In this document: in pieces, positions 2,192-63,726 of the stretch
How positions within the stretch are numbered: position 1 is the stretch's first letter
How the letters are laid out: the number at the start of each line of letters is the position of its first letter
Origin: an uncultured Candidatus Saccharibacteria bacterium
Lineage (GTDB): Bacteria > Patescibacteriota > Minisyncoccia > Phycocordibacterales > DATDWN01
Direction: 5' to 3'
NCBI GenBank assembly: GCA_964603545.1
Contig: CAZRVD010000003.1
Span: 4,945-68,944 of the forward strand
DNA length: 64,000 bases
The notes under the pieces: generated by a model
What the model was told of the DNA's origin: nothing
The model's input: the letters and a program-made list of their open reading frames with translations, nothing else
Database searches by the model: none
Made by a program: the position numbers and the translations under genes

Positions 2192-4000
2192 TTATGATTT
2201 TTGTTTACTTAACCATATTTTATATTTATTTGCCATATCTTCAAAACTTATACTGTTACTAGCAATCTCGTCTTTACCATGAACCATATATATTATTGCA
2301 TTCAAATCAACTTTTTTACGTGAACTTTTTACTGCTTTTGCTTTTGAAATTCTACTTTTAGCTCTTTTTAATATCTCAGGAAGTTTTAGTGTTACATTTC
2401 TAATATATGGATCAGCACTTAGCTTTTTGCCAGTAGATATTTTGACTAGTTCATTGAATGTCCTTGAACCTGCTAGTTTCCAGACTTTTGCCATATCTTC
2501 TCCAACTTTTGGGTTGTCTACTATATATCCATACTTTTCAAAGAAATACTCTCTCCATTGTGTTAAGGCTAGAGTTGCGAGTCCGTAACCGTGGTAGGAT
2601 CCTGATGATTCCCAAGAGTAAATATGCGGAACATTCAAAGCCCCCAATGATTCTTCTGATCTTACATAGTACTTTTTAAAATTTGCTTTTGCTATATCCA
2701 AAACTTTTTTTTCTGTAAGATTTTTTGTCTCATATATTTCTTTTTCAAAATTTGCCACAAAAATAATTCCATTTAGTCCAAGAGGTCTAACTGTGTAAGT
2801 TTTTTTAACAATTCTTTCATAAAGATCAAATGGATAGGACTCACCTTTTGAATTTACTGCATATTTAGCTTCCCACTCAGGACTAGAAAACACTGTATCT
2901 AAAAACATGCTTTGGGTTTCAGCCCAAGAAGTAGACATGGGATAATACTCATGATTTACGCAAACATCGACTTGTTCAGAGTTTAAAAGATGTGCGGCAT
3001 GCCCCCCTTCATGAAATAAAGTATGAATTCCTTGAGTACCAGAACCGATTTGATCGGGCACTACATTGCAAGTAAAGTTAGTTGAACCCGCTAATCTTTT
3101 ACCGTTTTCATATTTAACTAGTCCTGGCCAGTGGCAAAAACCATTGCTGTATTTTCCTTTTCTATCTAACAAGTCTAATCTCAATGTGCCGTTTCTAAAA
3201 TCTATTCCCATTCGGCTAAATGATAAACCCCATCTCAACAGAGCATCGCTGAATTGGAAATACTGGTCTTCTTCTTTTGCAAAACTTCCGGACATCATAA
3301 AACTAAAGTTCCAAGGTTTAGTTATGCCCGGCGTCTCGGTTTCAAGTTTTACCACTTCTTTCATTGCGTATTTAGTTTTTATATGAATCTTATCAAAAAT
3401 AGTAAAGAGCTCCTTTTTTGTCATTCCATCTTCTTTTCTAACTTTAAAATCATAAAAATCACTGTACCCGATAGTTTTAGCGTACTTGTTTCTTAGTTTT
3501 ACTACTTTTATGTAATCTTTTACTAAATATGTTGCTAGTTTTTCTTTTGCCTTAAAACAAGCTTCTCTGACTTTTTCATCAGGATCAGTGTATGTCATTG
3601 TAGACATCTTATTAATTGACGCTTTTACGAATTTTTTTGTATTCGGATCAACATAGCCTTCTTTTCTCGTAGCAAGTTTCTTATGTAAAAAATCTTCAAG
3701 TTTATCGATTTCTTTTTTAATTCCTCTTGCTTTGTCGGGTATTTGATAACCTTCAAAAAATTTTAACCATGTGTTTAGTCTTGTTACTTCTTCTTTATTT
3801 GCGCCTTTCAACAACTCTTTGATTTTTTTTGTATACCTTGAGTCTGATCTAAAAGCATCTCTTTTTGCTAGTGCATCAGCCTTCTTTTTATTAACTGAGT
3901 GGTCTCCCATATATGATAACCAAAAATAGTCTTCATAATTTTTATGCAGTTCAAAATACTTATTGTTTAATTCTTCCAAATATTCAGTCGCTTTGCTCAT
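2192..4000 (-). CDS. M3-family zinc metallopeptidase (oligoendopeptidase F-like)
   Basis: HEGGH zinc-binding motif ([13 protein letters not shown]) in a ~600-aa protein, in the position and length typical of PepF-like M3B peptidases. Confidence 0.55.
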
Positions 4001-4612
4001 TTACTTAATATATTTTGTTAAAACTTGAAAGTCTTTAAGGATGGTCTCCTTATTTGAGCCATCATACAGGGCGACAGCAGGGTGGTAAAGGGGTATTACA
4101 GCTATGGGACCGTAACTTGCCTTCGCCACAAACTCCTTGCCGTGGAGCTCTCCAATAGGTCCTATTTGATCGGTTAGGCCAAAGTGGTTCATAATATAGT
4201 TCATAGAAAACCTACCGAGGGTTGCGATAACTTCCGGCTGGATAATATCTATTTGTCTCTCCAAAAAAGGTGCATAAAGTTTTATTTCTTCTTCTGTGGG
4301 ATCACGGTTTTCTTGCGGACGGTCTTTTACAATATTAGTTATATACACATCACTCCTGTTAAGTTTTATTGATTCCAACATATTGTCTAGAACTTTTCCC
4401 GACTTACCACAAAAAGGTCTTCCTGTTTCGGCTTCGTTTTTCCCTGGAGCTTCTCCAATAAACATAATGTGCGCTGTGTGACTTCCCTCCCCAACTACTG
4501 GAAAATACTTATTCTCAACTCGGTAATCATATAACGGAGATTCTTTCAACTGCAAAACATCATTTCTAATCTCCTTCATTTTTTCAAATCTTTCTTCAAG
4601 TGTGAGTGACAT
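4001..4612 (-). CDS. Uracil-DNA glycosylase, family 4
   Basis: GEAPGKNEAETGRPFCGKSGKVL (family-4 motif A) and HPAVALY (motif B); 203 aa. Confidence 0.8.
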   Translation of the reverse strand: MSLTLEERFEKMKEIRNDVLQLKESPLYDYRVENKYFPVVGEGSHTAHIMFIGEAPGKNEAETGRPFCGKSGKVLDNMLESIKLNRSDVYITNIVKDRPQENRDPTEEEIKLYAPFLERQIDIIQPEVIATLGRFSMNYIMNHFGLTDQIGPIGELHGKEFVAKASYGPIAVIPLYHPAVALYDGSNKETILKDFQVLTKYIK

Positions 4613-4652
4613 AAAATAAATTTTAAATTAAAAATTTTAAATTTCAAACAAA

Positions 4653-5264
4653 CTACAAATACTTCTTTTTCCTAATAACTGAATCTTCTGGAAACCACCA
4701 ATCATTTGAATTACTGTCCATAATTGATTTTGCTAGCACCTTCGCATTGTCTGTTTTTAACTTACTTATTCCAATTCTTGCCCATTCCACCGCTCGAGTG
4801 TTACCAGTATCAATCTCTTCTTTAAGTGAAATTACCCATTCTAAAGTATCCGCATCTTTCACAAGCACAGCTTCTTTTGATATTCTTTTTTCATATTCGG
4901 AAATAGTTTGAAACATATCACCGCCAAAAGGAACCGAGTCCGAAATATCTTTCACCGCACTGTGCTCTTTTCTCTCAACGTATTTCTGATGAATATGATT
5001 TAGGTCAGAAATCCGTGCTTCGGACAAATCATGAAAAAGACACATCTTCAAAACTTTTAATACATCAACCGTGCCATCCATTTGGGCCAATGCGTAGCCA
5101 ATAAAAGCAGTTCTGTTTAAATGCTCAGCAACGGATTGTTCTCCAGTACCCAGAAAATGAAAACCACTTCTTGGTGTTTTTGCCAGCATCCCAACTTCAA
5201 ACAAAAAGTTGACAATACTTTTATTTGTTTCTTTTTTGCTTTTCTTACTACTTTTCTTTTTCAT
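4653..5264 (-). CDS. HD-domain phosphohydrolase (YfbR-like 5'-deoxynucleotidase family)
   Basis: Motifs H...HDLSE...DADTLE; ~200 aa. Confidence 0.6.
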   Translation of the reverse strand: MKKKSSKKSKKETNKSIVNFLFEVGMLAKTPRSGFHFLGTGEQSVAEHLNRTAFIGYALAQMDGTVDVLKVLKMCLFHDLSEARISDLNHIHQKYVERKEHSAVKDISDSVPFGGDMFQTISEYEKRISKEAVLVKDADTLEWVISLKEEIDTGNTRAVEWARIGISKLKTDNAKVLAKSIMDSNSNDWWFPEDSVIRKKKYL

Positions 5265-16652: not shown

Positions 16653-17678
16653 TTACTGCGGGGTGTGCTCGTGTATCGCCACTGCACTCAAGAGGTCTTG
16701 AGTGAGTGGAATGAGCGGAATCTTACCGTAGGTCAGAAATTGGTCGAGTGGTACCCACCCGCTGATCCAGGCCTTCCGTGCCTTGACGATTGCCAGGACG
16801 GTGTCGAGGTTGACCACGCACATGTGGAACCGCGGATTCTCCCACTGATTCTTCTCCCTGTTCAGTGTGTACATGTTGCCGATGAAGTAAAACGAGGCGG
16901 TTGAGGCCGGCTCGATGTTCGTCCATCGGAACGGTGCGACTTCTCCTCCCCGAGTGAAGCCGATGACTTCCTTCTTGTTGAGGTTGAAGAGTACCATCAC
17001 GTCCGTTTCGGGCGTGAACATGTACAGCCACTCACAGGGGCCATCCGGAGCTGGCACGGTGCCTGTGACGGTATTCGCCGTCACCACGAGACCTGGAATC
17101 TCGAAGTCCGCATGAACCTGCTTGAGGCGTTCACACATCGCGATCGTTCCCGGAGGGCCTGCCGGACCTTGCGGACCAGTTGCACCGGGAACGCCCTGTG
17201 GACCCATGGGGCCAGCCGGTCCGGGAGGTCCCGGAGGGCCGGGTTCACCATTGACCTGGTTCAGAAACCAGATCACGTGCCCAACGTACGCTCCAGCTTT
17301 AAGCTGGGTCACGCCGTTGTTGAACACCGATTTGGTGATCACGTCAACTCCATTCACCTTTTCGATAGTGTAGACCCATGCGTCGACCAGTCCCGGTGAC
17401 ACCTGCTTGACGCTGATGTTGTGAAGAGCTCCGCCCACCACGTGGACGACCTTGCACTGCCCGATTCCGAGACGTGCCGTTGTCAGCACTCCGAGGGACT
17501 CAATGCGGTAACCTGCGTAGACATTGCTACGCAGATCCTCGCAGATTTGAACGACCTCATATGTTGGCACCCCTGAAGCGTCCTCACCGACGGCTGGAAC
17601 GTTGGCCTGGGCACCTTCGGCCAACAAGTTCATGCCCAGAAAGATCGCGAGCCAGAGAACTGCCTTTATCACCTTCAT
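16653..17678 (-). CDS. Secreted collagen-like triple-helix-repeat protein (signal peptide + 11 G-X-Y triplets + C-terminal globular domain), G+C-rich foreign gene
   Basis: Start at [25 protein letters not shown], preceded by [41 protein letters not shown] run. Composition is visibly G+C-rich versus flanks. Confidence 0.7.
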
Positions 17679-17753
17679 CACTTTCTTTCTCCCTTGCCAA
17701 CTTAATGGCTTTTTGCACTGCCGAAAATGGCAACACAAATCTGTTCTGTGCGC

Positions 17754-25350: not shown

Positions 25351-25481
25351 CAGAATTCAGGACGCAGATTCACGACAAGCGCTACTGCGCTCGTAAACCG
25401 TGAATCTGTTCGAGTCCTGACGTAAAGCTTTGCTTTACTTCGGGTCCACAACGAAAAAAGCGCCTCTCGGCGTTTTCGTTG

Positions 25482-25554
25482 TGGACCCGACAGGACTCGA
25501 ACCTGCCACCCCATCATTGCAAATGATGTGCTCTACCAGATGAGCTACGGGCCC
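25482..25554 (-). tRNA. tRNA-Ala (anticodon UGC)
   Basis: Reverse complement GGGCCCGTAGCTCATCTGGTAGAGCACATCATTTGCAATGATGGGGTGGCAGGTTCGAGTCCTGTCGGGTCCA. Cloverleaf folds, anticodon loop TTTGCAA, G3:U70 Ala identity pair, 73 nt, CCA not encoded. Confidence 0.85.
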
Positions 25555-25761
25555 ATTATGCCTAAGTAAATTAAACTGCTTTAATTTACTTTGGACTTAT
25601 GGGAGCCAGAGACATGTTTCGCTACCAAGCTAAACAGTCGAGGCGGGGTCGCGGAATTCTGCGAACGACGGTGAGCAAAATATCTGTGACCTAATGAAGA
25701 TTACCAAAATTATTTACAAAATTCAAGCGGGCACTTCGCGTGCCCGCTCGTGTGAGCTGTA

Positions 25762-34622: not shown

Positions 34623-34943
34623 CTACTTTTTTTTCTTAATTGGTAGTTCGTCCTGGTAAACACGACTCACACCACTTGCAGTCCAGACTTCAGTCAACAA
34701 GCCTTGGTTAATCCAATTGTAAATAGCCTTGGTGGAATAACCTGAGTATCTTGAAGCTCTCGTGATTGTCAGCGTGTTTCGATCGGGTTCAGAGGTCACA
34801 AGGCTGTCCCTGTACACAACTTTGTATCCACTCGGAGTCTCGTGACACTCTAGTTTACCCTCCGAAATCCATCTCTTAATGGTACGGATGTCGACACCAA
34901 CGATTTCAGCAGCTTTCTTCTTAGAAATAAGTTCTCTGCTCAC
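34623..34943 (-). CDS. Tandem helix-turn-helix DNA-binding protein (two excisionase/MerR-like HTH repeats)
   Basis: Two HTH units, AAEIVGVDIRTIKRWISEGKL and YSTKAIYNWINQGLL. G+C moderately elevated. Hairpins and a T-run lie downstream on the minus strand. Confidence 0.5.
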   Translation of the reverse strand: MSRELISKKKAAEIVGVDIRTIKRWISEGKLECHETPSGYKVVYRDSLVTSEPDRNTLTITRASRYSGYSTKAIYNWINQGLLTEVWTASGVSRVYQDELPIKKKK

Positions 34944-35007: not shown

Positions 35008-36219
35008 CTAATTTTTATCGTATTTTACCAAAAACTCCTTTTTATATTTTTTAAAATCACCAAACAACATTTCTTCTCGCATTTTAGAGACTAGGTGTGT
35101 AATAAAGTAAATATTGTGTATGGAAGTTAGCGTAGAAGCTAGCATTTCTTTGCTATGAAAAAGATGAGCAACATAGCTTCTAGTAAAGTTCACGCAGGTG
35201 TAACAACCACAATCCTCGTCGAGCGGTCTTAGATCACTTCTAAACTTTTCGTTAAGTAAATTTATCTTACCAAATTTTGTGTAAGCCCCTCCATTTCTGG
35301 CAATCCTTGTTGGCACGACACAATCAAAAAGATCACAACCATTTTCTACTGCCATAAAAAGATCTTCAGGTTCTCCTATACCAAGTAAATGTCTTGGTTT
35401 TTCTTTTGGAAGTATTTCGTTTACCCATTGCACTGCCTTGTCCATATCTTCTTTATCAAAGGAACCTCCAATACCAAAACCATCAAAATCTAATCCTCCA
35501 ATAAAATCAGCGGACTCTTTTCTTAACCTTTCACTTCTTCCTCCTTGAACTATCCCGAAAAGTGCCTGATACTCTGAATTCGGTTTTGATTTGTGGTATT
35601 CCAAAGATTGTTTTGCCCAACGATGTGTTCTGTCGAGTGCTTCTGCTTGATAATGGTCGCTTTCATTTGGAGAGGTGCACTCATCAAAAGCAAAAATAAT
35701 ATCTGCACCTAGATTATGTTGAATATCAATAGATTTTTCTGGAGTAAAATAATGAGCATCTCCGCTAATATGATCGCGAAACATGACACCATTTGGGTCT
35801 ATTTTTGCTATTTTGGGTAAATCATTTTCTTCATTTAATTCATCTAGTAGAATTTCTTCGTTTTTTTTGTGAGCAATTTTACTTAGTCCATTTTTACCGT
35901 ACGCCACACCAAGAGAAAATACTTGAAATCCTCCAGAGTCTGTCATAAGTGGCCCATTCCAATTCATTGCCTTATGAAGGCCACCAATTTTTGATATCTG
36001 CTCGTGTCCTGGTTCCAAATACAAATGATAAGTATTAGCAATAATAGTCTGCACTCCCGTTTCTTTCACTTGTTCTGGAGTAAGTGACTTTACGGTACCC
36101 TTTGTTCCAACCGCAACAAAAGCTGGAGTCTGTATGTCTCCATGTAGTGTATGTATTGTCCCAACTCTTCCCAAAGTTCCCGCCAACTCTTTATGTATTT
36201 CAAATTTAAGTGACTTCAT
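35008..36219 (-). CDS. tgt: Queuine tRNA-ribosyltransferase
   Basis: DSGGFQ, LLGIGEPEDL, zinc site CGCYTCVNFTRSYVAHL. Confidence 0.9.
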   Translation of the reverse strand: MKSLKFEIHKELAGTLGRVGTIHTLHGDIQTPAFVAVGTKGTVKSLTPEQVKETGVQTIIANTYHLYLEPGHEQISKIGGLHKAMNWNGPLMTDSGGFQVFSLGVAYGKNGLSKIAHKKNEEILLDELNEENDLPKIAKIDPNGVMFRDHISGDAHYFTPEKSIDIQHNLGADIIFAFDECTSPNESDHYQAEALDRTHRWAKQSLEYHKSKPNSEYQALFGIVQGGRSERLRKESADFIGGLDFDGFGIGGSFDKEDMDKAVQWVNEILPKEKPRHLLGIGEPEDLFMAVENGCDLFDCVVPTRIARNGGAYTKFGKINLLNEKFRSDLRPLDEDCGCYTCVNFTRSYVAHLFHSKEMLASTLTSIHNIYFITHLVSKMREEMLFGDFKKYKKEFLVKYDKN

Positions 36220-36283
36220 ATAATTTTTTTAAATCTAACACACTAAAGACCTTTTTCAAAAAACACCTGTATTCACTAACTTT

Positions 36284-36313
36284 TATTTCACAGCGATATA
36301 TCGCTGTGAAATA
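36284..36313. repeat. Perfect 30-bp palindrome TATTTCACAGCGATATATCGCTGTGAAATA, copy 1 (24-bp core TTCACAGCGATATATCGCTGTGAA)
   Basis: Identical to 36584-36613, exactly 300 bp apart. The core also occurs at 63101-63124 and 63561-63584. Confidence 0.9.
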
Positions 36314-36323
36314 TTCTATGTAT

Positions 36324-36540
36324 AAAAAAACGGGTGGGTTGGGAGCGATAGATTGCTCCCTTCCCACCCGGTTCGGACGGTTTCTTTCCACCGTCATTGG
36401 TATTGCTGGCCGACTGCGGCCCTGACACGGACGATCGAACGTGAGTACGAGCGTAAGGTCGAAACAAGCTAGGAGTTCGAAACGGACGAGACAGAGTCGA
36501 AGTTTCCGAGGCAATAGGTGAAGGCATCCCTCCACCGCTA
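36324..36540 (-). ncRNA. Candidate ~215-nt small RNA in a G+C-rich cassette bracketed by the palindromes
   Basis: Promoter TTGACT(36570-36575)-17-TATGCT(36547-36552) on the minus strand. Terminator CGGGTGGGaagggagcaatctatcgctcccaaCCCACCCG + T7 at 36324-36370. No credible ORF (only low-complexity S/P/R read-through frames). Repeated UUCGA-containing hairpins. Confidence 0.35.
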
Positions 36541-36546
36541 ACAGCA

Positions 36547-36575
36547 AGCATACACCCATTCTCTAGTAAAGTCAA
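36547..36575 (-). promoter_or_regulatory. sigma70-like promoter (TTGACT -17- TATGCT) of the candidate sRNA, directly abutting palindrome copy 2
   Basis: Read directly on the minus strand. The palindrome centre lies ~60 nt upstream of the predicted TSS. Confidence 0.45.
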
Positions 36576-36583
36576 GTACACTT

Positions 36584-36613
36584 TATTTCACAGCGATATA
36601 TCGCTGTGAAATA
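36584..36613. repeat. Palindrome copy 2 (identical 30-mer)
   Basis: See 36284-36313. Confidence 0.9.
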
Positions 36614-36624
36614 AAAGAGAGTAA

Positions 36625-36662
36625 CCAAAAAACAGACTTACTTTAGTCTGTTTTTTGGTTTG
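36625..36662 (-). terminator. Bidirectional intrinsic terminator downstream of the FKBP gene
   Basis: CAGACTtactttAGTCTG hairpin with T6 on both strands. Confidence 0.5.
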
Positions 36663-36681
36663 CTTTTTTAAAGTTATTCAA

Positions 36682-42068: not shown

Positions 42069-42147
42069 TAAGTGCAGGAATTCGTTGGTGTTGGTCTCCC
42101 CGAGGATGGGGTGAGACACTCTCGAATCTTTGACAGGGAGTACGCTC

Positions 42148-43047
42148 ATGACTCGACTGGTTCGGATTTTCGTCCTCGCCTTGGCGGTTACGCTGGTCGC
42201 CAGCACCGCAATGGCACAGAAGGGACAGTTCGTTGCTCCTGTGAATGCGGAACTCGACAAGTTCCCCATCTACAACGACGTGCTGACAGTGGCCCAGATG
42301 GCCAAGCACGAACTCACGGTGAAGGTTCTCACGGAGCCCACCGTCGTGCACAACCACTTCCGTGGCCTGCACGGCAAGGACGGGCGCTTCGTCCTGGAAC
42401 TCTTGCCCACCGGAACAATCGTGTTGGTGGACAAGGACGGTAGGATCCGCTACAAAGCGGACTGCGGGAATCGGCTGAGCGAAATGCCGCCGCCTCCCGC
42501 ACCCGTCTTGGGACCGGCGACACCCGTACCGTGCATCCCGGAAATTCTTCCGCTCGCTCCCAAACAGAGTGGGTGGTCGTGGTTCTGGGGTGGCATGTGG
42601 AATTTCCTTGCCTGGATCGCCAACGGTCTGGGCGGGTTGCTGGCAGGAATCTGGCACTGCCTGTGGTTCCTGCTGACCAGCATCGGCTGGCTGTTCCTCT
42701 TGGCGCTCATTCTGTGGTTGACATGGCGACTGTTGCGCTACCTCTTCGGAGGTAACCAGCAGAACAACGCCTGGGGAGGGGGCAACAACCCGCCTGCTCC
42801 AGTCGCACCGCTCGTCACACCGCGACAGACGGCGACGCCACCGCCGGCTCCGACACCTTCAGCAGTCGCCCCTTCGGCGATTCCTGTGGTGGCGGGACCG
42901 CTCACCACCCCCGATCGCTCTTTCCTGAACTTCAACCCAGGGGATGTGGGTCGTCCGGACATGCTGACGTGGGGCGGGCGGATCACTCCGCACTCCTACG
43001 AGGACCGGCCGGACGGGAGTCACGCACTCCGATTCTATCGGAGGTAA
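42148..43047 (+). CDS. G+C-rich foreign secreted/membrane protein (signal peptide, two central TM helices, Pro/Ala-rich C-terminal region)
   Basis: AGGGAG SD before the MTRLVRIFVLALAVTLVASTAMAQ start. The region is very G+C-rich. Confidence 0.5.
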   Translation: MTRLVRIFVLALAVTLVASTAMAQKGQFVAPVNAELDKFPIYNDVLTVAQMAKHELTVKVLTEPTVVHNHFRGLHGKDGRFVLELLPTGTIVLVDKDGRIRYKADCGNRLSEMPPPPAPVLGPATPVPCIPEILPLAPKQSGWSWFWGGMWNFLAWIANGLGGLLAGIWHCLWFLLTSIGWLFLLALILWLTWRLLRYLFGGNQQNNAWGGGNNPPAPVAPLVTPRQTATPPPAPTPSAVAPSAIPVVAGPLTTPDRSFLNFNPGDVGRPDMLTWGGRITPHSYEDRPDGSHALRFYRR

Positions 43048-43891: not shown

Positions 43892-44542
43892 ATGTCTTCA
43901 CGACAGAAAGTAACGGACCTGCTTTTTGCGGTCCAGTTTGTTGGTGCAGCCTTGTTTTGTGGTGGCTACATCATGCGGTCGTTCTCAGACGTCACTGGAT
44001 CAAGCGTAGCACAGTTTGGCCTGGTAGAGATGTTTCTCTTGTTTCAATTGGCTCTAACGGTTAGTGCACACCGCACTTCCCCGAGTCGCTTAACGGAACA
44101 AGCAATCTGTACCTACCTGTTCTGGTTCATCCTCATGTTCCTCGTTATTGCTGTGGTGCTACTAAACCCAGCATACCGATGGAATGAAAAGGACACCACA
44201 ACTGCAATCGTTGCATTGGTTCTGACAGTTCTGACCCTTAGCTTTAACTACGCAAACGGGTCATCACTCAAAGACCCTTTCATCCGAGCACTGTTCGCAA
44301 TCGCGTACAAGTCAGTTCCCCAAGTACTCCTTGCCTGGAAATTCCTGGCAGAGGGCGCCTCGGGTACACCTGACTTGTCTGTGTATGTTGGACACGCCAC
44401 AATTCTCATTCGTCTTGGCCAGATCTACTTCATGGGAAAGGAAGCAGGCTGGGACCGAAACAGAATGTGGCTCTGGAGAAGCGAATGGGCCAACGAGATT
44501 AGTTGGCTTGTCGCCACAGTTGCGTGGTTTTTGGTTTCCTGA
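43892..44542 (+). CDS. G+C-rich foreign polytopic membrane protein (216 aa)
   Basis: GAGAGGAGG SD. Five to six hydrophobic helices. GGCCCTGGTCgaaaGACCCGGGCC terminator hairpin at 44549-44572. Confidence 0.5.
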   Translation: MSSRQKVTDLLFAVQFVGAALFCGGYIMRSFSDVTGSSVAQFGLVEMFLLFQLALTVSAHRTSPSRLTEQAICTYLFWFILMFLVIAVVLLNPAYRWNEKDTTTAIVALVLTVLTLSFNYANGSSLKDPFIRALFAIAYKSVPQVLLAWKFLAEGASGTPDLSVYVGHATILIRLGQIYFMGKEAGWDRNRMWLWRSEWANEISWLVATVAWFLVS

Positions 44543-56830: not shown

Positions 56831-57257
56831 TCGACCTTCTCTTCTCAAACTAAGCCCTTGGAATTCGCAAATAATTACAAAAACAAAAAGAGCTGTCTCT
56901 GTTGTAATATTAAAATTACTGCAGAGATAGCTCTTTTGCGTGTTCCAAGTGGTTTGTTTCAAGAAAAGTAACTAACATCTTTTCTAACTTACTTAAGAAC
57001 TAATTTATATCTTGATCTAAACCAAGATAAAGTTCATCGTATCACGCTGTTTTTTTATCAAAATAATAAATACTAAAAAAGTGTATAACTTGTGGAGAAC
57101 AAGTGTAAAACTCTACAAATATGAGTGAAAAAACGTGAAAATATAGTAAAATTTGACAAAATTTTAAAAAATTGAAAAACAAAAAATACCTTGACCAAAT
57201 TGAGATTTACAAAAAACTACACCATACTTGTGTAGCTTTTTGTAACCTATTGAGTAT

Positions 57258-60067: not shown

Positions 60068-63061
60068 CTAATAACTAATTTTTAAAAGGTCTCCATCCGT
60101 TTTAACAGTAACCACAACAAGCCCTGGTTTTGTACTCACCACTGCCCCGTCCCTGGTTTTCTCCCTTACAACTGTAGTATTGGTTGCCTTTCTGTAGTTA
60201 AATACATACTTTTCCACACCCTTCGCAACAACCCTTGTATCTAAGTCTGTTAGAACTCCTTTCTTTTCCTGCCAATCATAAACTATATCTGTATTTGGAA
60301 GATTTGTTGTAACCCCGTTTCTAATAATTTTGTTATAAGTAAATCTAAATCTCGTTGGGAACTCTATAAATTTAGTAAACGGAATAACTGTTGTGTTACC
60401 CTGGTTGTCTATAAGAGTTGTGGAAGTACTAGTTGTCAGTATTGTTGGATTTGGGTCTATCAAATTTACTGCAGAGAAAACAACGTCCTTTGTACTAGTT
60501 GAGAAAGTAACCTGTAGCTCTGGAGGAGTACTGTCATATACAGTTACACTATTTTCTTTGGCTTCTAGTATTTTATCTACTATTCCATCTCCATTTCCAT
60601 CAATTTTCAGTGTAGAGCTAGCTACACTTGTATTTGGAACTATATTCATTTCTACCAAAGTAGAAACTGTGGATGGAACACCTTGGAAAGAAGTAGTTTC
60701 TATAATATTGTTCCCAACTTGCTTATCTACATCCAGCGAGAAACTCCCACTATGAAGACCCTTAAGTTTCAAAGTAAGTGTTAGGTCGTTTGGAGTAGAA
60801 ATAAACTGTACGTCACCTATTTGCTCATAATTAACATCTGGAATTTCCTCTCTTATTTTACCTGTTACTGGATCCTTTCCTGTATACCTACCAAATGAAT
60901 CTGTTACCCCCAATGTGAGTGGTGAATGAAGTGTGTAATGCAGACGATTTTTACTAGAAATTAAAGTTGATGCATTGTCTACAACTATATTACTTGAATC
61001 AGAAAAAACTGTATTATTAAAAGTTGATGAAATAAAATCTAATATGTTTGGAATTTCTAAAATATCCCTGTGCTTCCTATTTACTCCACCAACCGGATCA
61101 TTGTACTTCCACAAATCCACCCACCACCTCTCAACATTCGGTGTGGATGTAGACATCCACAAGGCACTAGGCACAACAACCGTACCGTCACCATCTACCA
61201 CATACCGAGGTTTGTAAGAAAGATATTCTGTTCCAGAAGAATTCAAATAGGATTTATAATCCACCCCAGCTATTGTTTCCTCTCCCCATCCGGCTATTTG
61301 TATAACTTTGGTTGTAGAAGCTGGTTGCCACAAATCTAATACAGCATGCATACTCTGTGCATCTGCATACAAACCAGAGTTTCCAATATTTGGGTGAACG
61401 GTGTCATCAAAGGCAGGTTTGCTTCTTCCGTCTGTTCCTAAAATATAATTTTTAAGCTCCGTATTATTTGAAACAAAAAGTCCGTACTCTGAAGTCTGTG
61501 GATTGAAAAACGGTTTATCTTCAAAAGTAGCCACCTTATCTACCACAAACCCTGGATCAACTATTGAAAAATATCCTTCAGAAGGTAATAGGTTGTAAAT
61601 AGCCGGCATGTTCTCAGAAAGGTCTCTGGAACGAGCGTTGTCCATAATCAGCCCATAACCCAAACCTTTCCCGTGAAGTAAAGCTACTACGGCATCTGGT
61701 GTTCCCACTTGTGGCACAGCAACAAAAATTATTTTATCTATTTTGTTGTAAATTGGATTGTTGGTATCCTTCAATTTTTGAACTAAAGCTTTTATTACCA
61801 AGCCTCCGTTTGAATGCCCAATGAGTGTCACTTTACCTGTCCCAGAATTTTGCTGTAACTCTTGTAATTTTTTAAGAATGTAACTTTCAGAAAAATTTTG
61901 TGAATTGTTATAGAAAAGTCTGTTTCTAGTTGTACTCGCACCAAATGTTATGATGTCATTTAAAGAAAGTCGCCAGTCATAAGGGATAAAAGCATAGTCA
62001 GGTATAATGCCGTCATTTTTCCAATTTCGGAGTTCTGTTATGAAAGAATTGTAAACATTCGCTCCAAATACTTCATCCATCACTCCAGTCTCCGCTTCAT
62101 CACTTATACTCTGGGTATCGTCTTTTGTATAAATAGGATTTAAACTTTTACCGGTAGTATTAAGTGAAAGTTTGGTATGTTTTGAATCAGATGTTGAAAG
62201 CCACAACTCATCGTCGTGGAAACACTCATTACCAATCAAACTAGTCCCACAATCAATCGTTCCCAATTCTTCATAAAGTCTAGAACTCATTACCCCAGGA
62301 AAAAACATCACGCTCGAATTACCTGTCGGTGGTGGAGATACAACTTCACCAGTAAAAACTGCCGAAACAGTCACAATATTTGTCCCAGAAGAGGCATAAG
62401 TAGTATTCCCACTCAAAATTCTTTGAGCCAAAACTGGTGGATCAATCGACTCAATACTCAAATCACAATTAAAAACTTTTCCTTTTAGGCTTTGCGGAAG
62501 AGGATTCCCGTACTTACTAGAATCATAATCTGCCGGGCATTCACCTTCGAAACATGGCGACTTAATACTTACATTCCAGTCATCCACCGCATCAGTCGGA
62601 CCGTTTATCTCACCGGTCGCAACCAAAGACACATGAGAAGCATCCTGAAGAAAACCAACTTCAGTTACTTCAGTTGTCGTTGATTGGATATTTGGTTCTA
62701 TTCCAATATATGGACAAAGGTTGTAATTTCCATCAATACAGTTGTAATCATCATCATACAAACTACATGACTGAAAACGGTTTATTTTGTAACCCGCCAA
62801 GCCCTCATCCCACTCAAAATGAGAAGCAAAAGCTGGATCAATAGAAATAGCAAGTGGGGTTGTAGTACTTTCAAGAGACGCTAATATAACATTAGTAGAA
62901 GGACTGTTTACCTCATAAAGAGCAAAAAACGCAGAGACAAACGGCGTACTTAGTAGAAAAAAGAGCAATAGTGATAGGGCAAAAACAAATAATGACTTTG
63001 TTTTCTTTTCCATATTGACCGTCATATTACTCACAGCCCTCCCTTGGTCAATATTGCTCAC
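60068..63061 (-). CDS. Large (~980-997 aa) secreted/membrane-anchored protein containing an alpha/beta-hydrolase (lipase/esterase, GHSxG) domain
   Basis: N-terminal TM LFVFALSLLLFFLLSTPFVSAFF. VTLIGHSNGGLVIKALV nucleophile elbow. Long Thr/Ser/Val-rich beta-rich C-terminal region. Confidence 0.5.
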   Translation of the reverse strand: MSNIDQGRAVSNMTVNMEKKTKSLFVFALSLLLFFLLSTPFVSAFFALYEVNSPSTNVILASLESTTTPLAISIDPAFASHFEWDEGLAGYKINRFQSCSLYDDDYNCIDGNYNLCPYIGIEPNIQSTTTEVTEVGFLQDASHVSLVATGEINGPTDAVDDWNVSIKSPCFEGECPADYDSSKYGNPLPQSLKGKVFNCDLSIESIDPPVLAQRILSGNTTYASSGTNIVTVSAVFTGEVVSPPPTGNSSVMFFPGVMSSRLYEELGTIDCGTSLIGNECFHDDELWLSTSDSKHTKLSLNTTGKSLNPIYTKDDTQSISDEAETGVMDEVFGANVYNSFITELRNWKNDGIIPDYAFIPYDWRLSLNDIITFGASTTRNRLFYNNSQNFSESYILKKLQELQQNSGTGKVTLIGHSNGGLVIKALVQKLKDTNNPIYNKIDKIIFVAVPQVGTPDAVVALLHGKGLGYGLIMDNARSRDLSENMPAIYNLLPSEGYFSIVDPGFVVDKVATFEDKPFFNPQTSEYGLFVSNNTELKNYILGTDGRSKPAFDDTVHPNIGNSGLYADAQSMHAVLDLWQPASTTKVIQIAGWGEETIAGVDYKSYLNSSGTEYLSYKPRYVVDGDGTVVVPSALWMSTSTPNVERWWVDLWKYNDPVGGVNRKHRDILEIPNILDFISSTFNNTVFSDSSNIVVDNASTLISSKNRLHYTLHSPLTLGVTDSFGRYTGKDPVTGKIREEIPDVNYEQIGDVQFISTPNDLTLTLKLKGLHSGSFSLDVDKQVGNNIIETTSFQGVPSTVSTLVEMNIVPNTSVASSTLKIDGNGDGIVDKILEAKENSVTVYDSTPPELQVTFSTSTKDVVFSAVNLIDPNPTILTTSTSTTLIDNQGNTTVIPFTKFIEFPTRFRFTYNKIIRNGVTTNLPNTDIVYDWQEKKGVLTDLDTRVVAKGVEKYVFNYRKATNTTVVREKTRDGAVVSTKPGLVVVTVKTDGDLLKISY

Positions 63062-63094
63062 GCTCCAAAAAAATGTTCTAATTTTTTACTCCAG

Positions 63095-63130
63095 TATTAA
63101 TTCACAGCGATATATCGCTGTGAATTAATA
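63095..63130. repeat. Perfect 36-bp palindrome TATTAATTCACAGCGATATATCGCTGTGAATTAATA, copy 3 of the 24-bp core
   Basis: Between the stop of the YerC-like gene and the start of the large hydrolase gene. Confidence 0.9.
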
Positions 63131-63131
63131 C

Positions 63132-63536
63132 CTATTTTGCATATTTTCTCCAATACTTTTTTCCTATCTTGGGTGGCATTAATCCACCCACCGTCATAAT
63201 GCTCCAAATTATTTTCTCTAGATCTATTTTTTCTCTCTGAGATGTTTTTAAAATGGAATTATACTTCCCTATTTCCATCTTTAGAGAAATCATTGTAATA
63301 GTTGAAGTACTTACCTTTAATATTTCTGAGATTGAAAGCTGTGGTATTTTTGAATTCAACAATAATACAATAGCAATTCTTTTAGCTAGCATTAGCTTTT
63401 CTGTATCGGTCAAAAGTTCATTGACTACCCCAGACAACAACTTTTTATTCTGAGATTTATTCAAGATCAGTATTAGATCATTAAATAACTTGTCTGAAAG
63501 TTCCTTATCCAATTCCTTACTAGAGATATGTGGCAT
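63132..63536 (-). CDS. TrpR/YerC/YecD-family helix-turn-helix protein (135 aa)
   Basis: LTDTEKLMLAKRIAIVLLLNSKIPQLSISEILKVSTSTITMIS matches the YerC/TrpR-like HTH. Start at MPHISS. The longer ORF to 63800 reads through palindrome copy 4. Confidence 0.5.
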   Translation of the reverse strand: MPHISSKELDKELSDKLFNDLILILNKSQNKKLLSGVVNELLTDTEKLMLAKRIAIVLLLNSKIPQLSISEILKVSTSTITMISLKMEIGKYNSILKTSQREKIDLEKIIWSIMTVGGLMPPKIGKKYWRKYAK

Positions 63537-63556
63537 ATATTCATCAATTATTGATA

Positions 63557-63588
63557 ATATTTCACAGCGATATATCGCTGTGAAATAT
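63557..63588. repeat. Perfect 32-bp palindrome ATATTTCACAGCGATATATCGCTGTGAAATAT, copy 4, ~25 nt upstream of the YerC-like start codon
   Basis: Read directly. Confidence 0.9.
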
Positions 63589-63726
63589 ATTAATGGCGAA
63601 TTATAGGATGTCAAATGAGAGAATGTCAAAGGATTGAGAACTAAGAAATCTAGAGTAAGTAAAATTTTAAAATAAGAAAAAGCAATCTTGCTATTTATTA
63701 TTACAAAAAAACAATCCGCGATAGTT

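Follow-up and report, generated by a model that had tools for sequence, protein, structure and literature searches.

What reads a perfect palindrome that stands on both sides of a small helix-turn-helix (HTH) gene and again on both sides of an ORF-poor segment at a distant locus? The stretch of DNA analysed here, 64,000 nucleotides long with a GC content of ~36% (hereafter the window), carries four copies of this element, and the initial annotation proposed that the HTH protein is its reader, as an autoregulated repressor. That proposal has to be weighed, from the way in which site, gene and protein vary together among related genomes, against readings in which the palindrome acts as a folded RNA or single DNA strand, as the end of a mobile segment, or as the target of some other protein.

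The 24-bp core of the palindrome, TTCACAGCGATATATCGCTGTGAA, is present in four exact copies in the window, at 36287, 36587, 63101 and 63561, where none is expected and where 100 shuffles produced none. Copy 1 (36284-36313, 30 bp) lies between the terminator of a putative small RNA (sRNA) gene and the predicted promoter of tgt, and copy 2 (36582-36615, 34 bp) between the terminator of an FKBP gene and the sRNA promoter. Copy 3 (63094-63131, 38 bp), a proposed auxiliary operator, sits 1 nt past the stop codon of the HTH gene, and copy 4 (63557-63588, 32 bp), the proposed primary operator, falls in the 5' leader of the same gene, 21 nt before its ATG. The shared core of these last two copies and the 32-bp length of copy 4 had been noted correctly at the outset, but copy 3 had been given as 36 bp. 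No further core copy with up to three mismatches is found in the 64-kb window, half-site searches of the window return nothing besides the four core copies, and the four have no sequence in common outside the palindrome. The exact 24-mer core was found in neither genome_contigs nor metagenome_contigs, and a degenerate palindrome search of metagenomes gave seven loci, of which only L088, L086 and L092 look relevant; L089-L091 were rejected as GC-rich chance matches. Two other, imperfect inverted repeats in the window are unrelated in sequence to the palindrome: one at 56886-56937 (26-nt arms, 85%) and one at 25552-25603 (24-nt arms, 83%), the latter abutting or slightly overlapping the 5' end of a tRNA-Ala gene (25481-25554).

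An independent NCBI assembly (L005; GCA_007376085.1, VMFN01000002.1) carries the same HTH region and upstream copy, with a protein 100% identical to that of the window, on a contig that ends 145 nt upstream of copy 4. In its annotation the HTH ORF runs on through the palindrome and is given as a 198-aa 'partial' protein, whereas the correct start codon is that of the conserved methionine in the MPHxS motif.

The HTH gene of the window lies on the minus strand (63132-63536, with the ATG at 63536 and the stop codon ending at 63132) and encodes 134 amino acids, one fewer than first reported, a codon too many having been counted. The protein had originally been labelled YerC/YecD/TrpR-like. The sequence scores 34.7 bits against Pfam PF01371 (Trp_repressor), above the gathering score (cutoff 27; E = 1.8e-8), over residues 22-98 (positions 6-85 of the 88 in the profile), and a precomputed match to this family is recorded for 16 of 16 homologs. 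The NCBIfam YerC/YecD model gives no match to the HTH protein at E values up to 1, and the protein lacks the marks of HisR (YerC/YecD), which are a match to that model, a length below 110 aa, and sites upstream of histidine biosynthesis or transport genes. Nor does it qualify as TrpR proper, scoring 27.5 bits with the TrpR equivalog model TIGR01321 of NCBIfam, under the cutoff of 67.25.

Structural comparison leads to the same family. A profile built from 15 homologs retrieves 3frw, 3kor and 3g1c first among PDB entries (E = 1e-4 to 1e-3) and then E. coli TrpR. When the AlphaFold2 (AF2) model of the HTH protein (pLDDT 72.7, eight helices) is compared with the PDB by Foldseek, ranks 1-35 are all TrpR or TrpR-like, at target TM scores of 0.57-0.71 and probabilities of 0.63-1.0 (0.95 or more for the top 20), but with weak E-values (0.06 or higher). 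The helix LLTxTEKxMLAKRxAI and the HTH segment ILKVS-TSTITMIS align with TrpR helices C to E, and the fold of the modelled protein is all-helical and TrpR-like. Set against TrpR and HisR (under 110 aa), the hallmarks of the protein's own family are an invariant MPHxS N-terminus and a conserved C-terminal extension of ~35 aa ending in GG-MPPK-G-KYW; a profile search (E up to 1e-10) gathers 891 clusters at 50% identity, nearly all of 130-140 aa and matched end to end. Judged by these sequence comparisons, the protein belongs to a new, widespread and longer TrpR/HisR-type subfamily with a conserved two-operator bracket. Tandem paralogs also exist: L088 has two paralogous HTH genes in succession (3460-5021), and the upstream one has a palindrome, ATTTCACTACAATATATTGTAGTGAAAT, at its 3' end.

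The bracket was assessed in 80 homologous loci, all from species representatives (Parcubacteria/Paceibacteria-type MAGs), whose proteins range from 69% down to 32% identity. Palindromes qualified with arms of at least 8 bp and at most one mismatch, and two of them made a matched pair when their central 18-mers lay within three mismatches of each other. A matched pair flanks the homolog in 42 of the 80 loci, as against 0 of 1269 shifted pseudo-gene controls placed in the same loci; under these criteria it is missing in the other 38. Any qualifying palindrome is found upstream in 62 loci (10% of controls) and downstream in 54 (13% of controls), with the centres usually ~21 nt before the ATG and ~21 nt past the stop codon, and elsewhere in the loci perfect palindromes with arms of 8 bp or more occur at 0.055 per kb. 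Had the palindromes of relatives lain mostly far from the HTH gene, the proposed link between the two would have been in difficulty; across the 80 loci they occur almost only beside it.

The palindromes themselves are lineage-specific, as in ACTACGATATATCGTAGT, CATACGATATATCGTATG, TGTACGATATATCGTACA (L040), TCTATCATATATGATATA, CTTTCGATTAATCGAAAG and CAATACTTTAAAGTATTG, and within any one locus the two flanks are identical or nearly so, usually with no third copy in the 20-kb locus. Two contigs (L013 and L054) each encode two paralogs, and each paralog has its own palindrome. The closest informative ortholog, 69% identical (L001/L002), shares with the window the gene order NAD-binding oxidoreductase, HTH, secreted LCAT-like hydrolase, the neighbours of the HTH gene being 58% and 73% identical to those of the window (73% for the LCAT hydrolase in L002). 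It is flanked by two palindromes of the form TTTCAC-TACAGTA/TATTGTA-GTGAAA (the stroke marks the centre), so that both copies differ from the window at four positions in each arm, and do so symmetrically.

Changes in the site can also be set against changes in the protein. Where residue 4 of the recognition helix is Ser, position -4 of the site is G in 21 of 25 cases, and where it is Thr the base is A in eight of nine; Pro at helix residue 3 goes with A at -6 in 23 of 24 cases and Thr with G or T in six of six, correlations that carry a component of shared descent and are to that extent confounded by phylogeny. The same arms, ACTACGATATATCGTAGT, are nevertheless found in L016, L019 and L085, lineages whose proteins are only 32-55% identical. 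In sum, 42 of 80 lineages have a co-varying palindrome beside the gene, and the bases of its half-sites correlate with residues of the helix; the HTH protein probably binds the flanking palindrome as its own operator.

One could suppose instead that a different protein binds the palindrome and that the HTH gene is a conserved target rather than the binder, as a conserved target gene would keep its sites too. The site sequence, however, changes with the HTH recognition helix, paralogs within one genome have different sites, and no other regulator is conserved beside the sites; TrpR-family proteins, moreover, are known to bind ~20-bp palindromes of this form and to autoregulate (PMC9413887). We consider a separate binder improbable.

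Whether the element is read as duplex DNA or works as a hairpin, in RNA or single-stranded DNA, is a second question, and in its general form the hairpin proposal has some merit. Each copy can fold into a hairpin of 12-19 bp, copies 1 and 3 are picked up on the plus strand by a simple scan for terminators, copies 4 and 3 of the window would lie within the 5' leader and directly after the stop codon, and the compensatory arm changes between lineages would fit a stem as readily as an operator. Such 5' and 3' stem-loops might stabilise or terminate transcripts, or the two might anneal to one another and so form a stem at which the HTH mRNA and the sRNA are processed. Yet the palindromes are AT-rich (median GC 26%), the median energy of the RNA hairpin is -10 kcal/mol, and a T-run (at least 5 T in the next 8 nt) follows only 1 of 34 downstream copies; the window copies are followed by CTGGAGTA and the like. 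With stems of this kind an intrinsic (Rho-independent) terminator was rejected, and the sRNA already has a strong GC-rich terminator of its own. In some 12 loci the gene is near-leaderless and the upstream copy lies over its predicted -35/-10, and so would be left out of the transcript.

The centre of the site argues in the same direction. Beyond the outer eight complementary pairs, the innermost two pairs are complementary in 62% of gene-near sites, against 9% of background, and what would be the loop of the hairpin is thus itself symmetric; it is kept as ATAT, TATA or TTAA across lineages whose arms differ. Symmetry through the very centre is required by a symmetric dimer on duplex DNA but not by a hairpin loop, and for this reason recognition of the palindrome as duplex DNA by a symmetric dimer is favoured. 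A few arm sequences, furthermore, recur in distant lineages and track the helix residues. Taken with these observations, a hairpin role for the palindromes appears very unlikely.

We are thus led to a model that we hold to be likely, in which a dimeric TrpR-family factor binds the palindrome, represses its own gene through copy 4, employs copy 3 as an auxiliary site, and holds the sRNA and perhaps tgt in a small regulon. The dimer of the 134-aa protein would recognise ~24 bp, TTCAC-AGCGATA/TATCGCT-GTGAA, as double-stranded DNA, the recognition helix (VS-T-S-T-I-T) reading the variable outer and inner arm bases and the conserved basic C-terminal tail (GGLMPPKIGKKYW) possibly reading the conserved AT-rich centre. 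Bound at copy 4, just downstream of a strong promoter, it would repress transcription of its own gene. Copy 3, right after the stop codon, would either loop to copy 4, in the manner of lac O2 or of lambda OL-OR, or serve as a roadblock of bound protein at the close of the transcription unit. Copies 1 and 2, on either side of the GC-rich sRNA beside tgt, would be bound by the same factor, and with these sites occupied the sRNA, and perhaps tgt, would come under its control.

The position of the upstream site speaks to the sign of this regulation. A predicted sigma-70-type promoter of the HTH gene, TTGACA-18-TATAAT (63600-63629, minus strand), agrees with the consensus at 12 of 12 positions, the prediction being a consensus match only, and places copy 4 at roughly +5 to +36 relative to the predicted start of transcription. 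The upstream copy had been thought to overlap the promoter; it does occupy a repressing position, as was proposed, but the 12/12 promoter lies upstream of it. Across the loci the upstream site covers the predicted -35/-10 in ~12 loci and falls at +20 to +50 in eight, the window among them. Both placements, over the -35/-10 and just past the start, repress, and negative autoregulation is on that account the best reading. The claim of an autoregulated repressor finds strong support in comparative sequence data (the bracket in 42 of 80 loci against 0 of 1269 controls, together with the helix-base correlation), repression being preferred to activation by inference from site position.

As for the downstream copy, the gene that follows in the window encodes a secreted LCAT-like hydrolase with an LCAT domain (60068-63025, minus strand), with a predicted promoter, TTGACC-16-TAATAT, at 63024-63051 on the same strand, and copy 3 had been placed at the start region of this gene. 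As chiefly an operator of the hydrolase gene, copy 3 fares poorly: in 16 of 36 paired loci the neighbour on that side is in convergent orientation, so the downstream copy cannot be merely the operator of the next gene, and it is therefore read as an auxiliary operator. Operator spacings in the paired loci (419-602 bp) show no helical periodicity, and hence do not speak positively for looping. The sites at the promoters of the sRNA, tgt and the hydrolase gene are centred at about -50 to -75, upstream of the -35, an arrangement that suits activation or insulation more than classical repression. One might go further and take the two-site bracket itself as the functional unit, in which the TrpR-like protein, bound at both ends, would loop or roadblock a short segment and so insulate or terminate transcription units, with the GC-rich sRNA as the main output. 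In the very compact genomes of these Parcubacteria such segments would comprise the regulator's own gene, the sRNA and, in part of the genomes, also tRNA genes or GC-rich genes of foreign origin. We find this extension rather doubtful.

The second locus at which the palindrome occurs is a test of whether the factor acts in trans. Between the gene for an FKBP-type isomerase and tgt, copies 1 and 2 enclose an ORF-poor, GC-rich segment (36322-36575, minus strand) with a promoter, TTGACT-17-TATGCT (36575-36547), and a terminator consisting of a strong GC-rich hairpin (36368-36333) and a T-run (to 36324). The segment folds more stably than shuffled sequences (z = -3.4) and is most simply an unannotated sRNA gene with a putative product of ~217 nt. 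Rfam holds no family for it, whether at the gathering score or at loose E-values, in the window, L093 or L094, and an nhmmer search with the window sRNA against 85 loci found nothing. Next to it on the minus strand lies tgt, encoding queuine tRNA-ribosyltransferase (35008-36219; Pfam TGT, E = 6.6e-135), a possible regulon member with a predicted promoter at 36259-36232; copy 1 is ~68 nt upstream of its ATG (36219), in agreement with the ~70 nt given earlier.

The synteny FKBP, gap, tgt, uvrB is kept in relatives whose contigs reach that far. In the genome of the closest informative ortholog (L094, the same genome as L001) a homologous sRNA occupies the same position in the FKBP-tgt gap, and that genome's own palindrome, ATTTCACTACAATATATTGTAGTGAAAT, follows the sRNA terminator, 14 nt before the predicted -35 of tgt. 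In L093 (the same contig as L016) the genome's own CTACTACGATATATCGTAGTA follows the FKBP stop codon and precedes the sRNA promoter. In each case the genome-specific palindrome is the only such site in the 9-kb FKBP-sRNA-tgt locus, and the locus is separate from the HTH gene, on a different contig in the L094/L001 genome and ~21 kb away in L093/L016. That sites at two separate loci change together with the HTH protein in three genomes points to a trans-acting factor with a regulon, and the suggested link between the regulator and the distant sRNA/tgt locus is in this way supported by sequence comparison. No ATAT-centred palindrome was found in the FKBP-tgt gap of four other relatives, which have one to four tandem GC-rich RNA units there, and the gap of a distant genome has a small ORF and no site.

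The gap deserves description in its own right, being a hot spot of GC-rich small RNA genes that lack annotation and that all have a promoter of the TTGAC type and an intrinsic terminator. From one to about four tandem RNA units, of at least three unrelated sequence types, are present in the gap of six relatives (window 36220-36681; L093 3519-4000; L094 3611-4000; L097 1279-1900; L098 1133-2500; L099 2009-2500; L100 2019-2500). Between tgt and uvrB the window encodes, on the minus strand (34623-34943), a 106-aa protein with two MerR/HTH_17-type helix-turn-helix repeats, at a place that is empty or differently filled in relatives. The window also holds GC-rich islands (55-65% GC) that are protein-coding and not flanked by the palindrome, at 16653-17738 (minus strand), 42130-43047 (plus) and 43892-44542 (plus); their products are a 361-aa secreted protein with collagen-like GPP repeats, a 305-aa proline-rich membrane protein and a 216-aa membrane protein, and they look horizontally acquired.

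Other segments adjoin or lie within the palindromes of relatives. Just upstream of the HTH gene, the closest relatives have GC-rich inserts (L013 9321-9958, L006 9297-9767, L009 3127-3456) with unrelated ORFs on the opposite strand (139, 156 and 109 aa, respectively), and the L013 insert is itself bracketed by two palindrome copies. In L068 (9977-10925) the HTH gene stands between palindromes, and a segment with tRNA-Lys and tRNA-Leu genes is closed off by a third copy of variant sequence, CCTTACGATATATCGTAAGG. About 10 of the 80 loci have a tRNA gene no more than ~700 bp from the HTH gene, and two have an rRNA gene within ~1.3 kb (16S ~600 bp downstream in L012; 23S at ~1.3 kb in L013). We set aside regulation of stable RNA as a general function of the family because the loci that adjoin tRNA or rRNA genes cluster in one subclade. 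On two unrelated contigs (L057, at 10497 and 12734; L086, at 576-603) lineage-specific palindromes bracket or separate HIT-family and RecJ-like genes, which are possible further members of the regulon.

Bracketed segments so varied in content invite the thought that the palindromes are recombination or transposition ends, and that the HTH gene, the sRNA and the other enclosed segments are mobile or invertible cassettes comparable to dif-modules, attC or TIR units. Read from the sequence, the palindrome has a layout of an 11-bp arm, a 6-bp centre and an 11-bp arm, and an 11-6-11 layout resembles the core sites of tyrosine recombinases. The GC-rich sRNA of the window, the foreign-looking ORF of the L013 insert and the two tRNA genes of L068 would be plausible cargo, the content of the FKBP-tgt gap varies among relatives, and in L001 the flanking copies are inverted relative to each other. 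Against this, no recombinase or transposase is present in or beside the unit, the 134-aa protein has only the TrpR fold, and the PHROGs (phage) and PADLOC (defence) libraries hold no match to it. The order of the NAD-binding gene, the HTH gene and the LCAT hydrolase gene is kept between genomes whose proteins are only 58-73% identical, L094 retains the homologous sRNA with a single palindrome, and most loci have exactly two copies, both at the HTH gene. An insertion sequence or MITE with terminal inverted repeats was rejected on related grounds: no transposase, four copies in 64 kb and usually two per 20-kb locus, and flanks that are kept in L001/L002. A cassette origin is in our estimation very unlikely.

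If the preferred model of a self-repressing TrpR-family dimer is correct, its main value lies in what it would make predictable. Patescibacteria are hard to culture, and to our knowledge almost nothing is known of transcriptional regulation in this group, the Candidate Phyla Radiation; a literature search returned no publication linking TrpR-like proteins with Patescibacteria. With two copies of the predicted operator beside the gene, the binding site can be read from the sequence of each genome, for a regulator family of ~890 clusters at 50% identity, and since palindrome and protein change together in roughly half of the 80 related species, the targets of the family should be predictable from sequence. 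The correlations given above amount to a first version of a residue-to-base recognition code. Family, readable site and code together would permit regulon prediction in hundreds of uncultivated genomes and simple binding tests in vitro, and they already point to an unannotated small RNA family beside tgt as a target.

How does this system compare with those already described? The nearest relative is HisR of the Firmicutes (YerC/YecD; 3kor, 3g1c, 3frw), which belongs to the same Pfam family and supplies the best sequence matches in the PDB. Members of the TrpR/HisR group have symmetric, lineage-specific palindromes of ~20 bp, and roughly half of them have a site ahead of the gene that encodes them and are predicted to autoregulate through it (PMC9413887). 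The window system, as predicted here, would resemble them in both respects. The HisR consensus is cacTTTA-N6-TAAAgtg, and the tryptophan-contacting residues are not conserved in HisR (PMC9413887); the window motif, by contrast, is xxCGATA/TATCGxx. The window protein is ~30-35 aa longer than HisR, with its conserved C-terminal extension and MPHxS N-terminus, and its sites adjoin its own gene, the sRNA/tgt locus and the LCAT-like hydrolase gene, with no his genes at any of them. A second operator past the stop codon has not been described for HisR.

With E. coli TrpR, the window protein shares the fold (the top Foldseek matches are TrpR, at target TM scores of 0.6-0.7), the alignable LT-x-x-E-x-x-L-x-x-R helix and HTH, and a palindromic predicted operator that in some lineages has TGTAC-like arms, as in TGTACGATATATCGTACA of L040. 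TrpR itself is autoregulated. The two are nonetheless not orthologs, as the TIGR01321 score indicates, no trp genes lie at the window sites, and the window has two predicted operators, ~460 bp apart, that bracket the gene. For this last feature the closest parallels are found in unrelated protein families: lac O1 and O2 are spaced 401 bp apart, and the OL and OR operators of lambda CI flank cI, the repressor gene itself. In those systems as here, identical sites stand 300-600 bp apart, one at a promoter and one without a promoter of its own, but no helical phasing is seen in the present family, and the likeness is one of layout only. Set beside all of these, the subfamily differs in its length and terminal motifs, in its operator motif, in having neither trp nor his targets, and in a conserved bracket of two predicted operators around its own gene.
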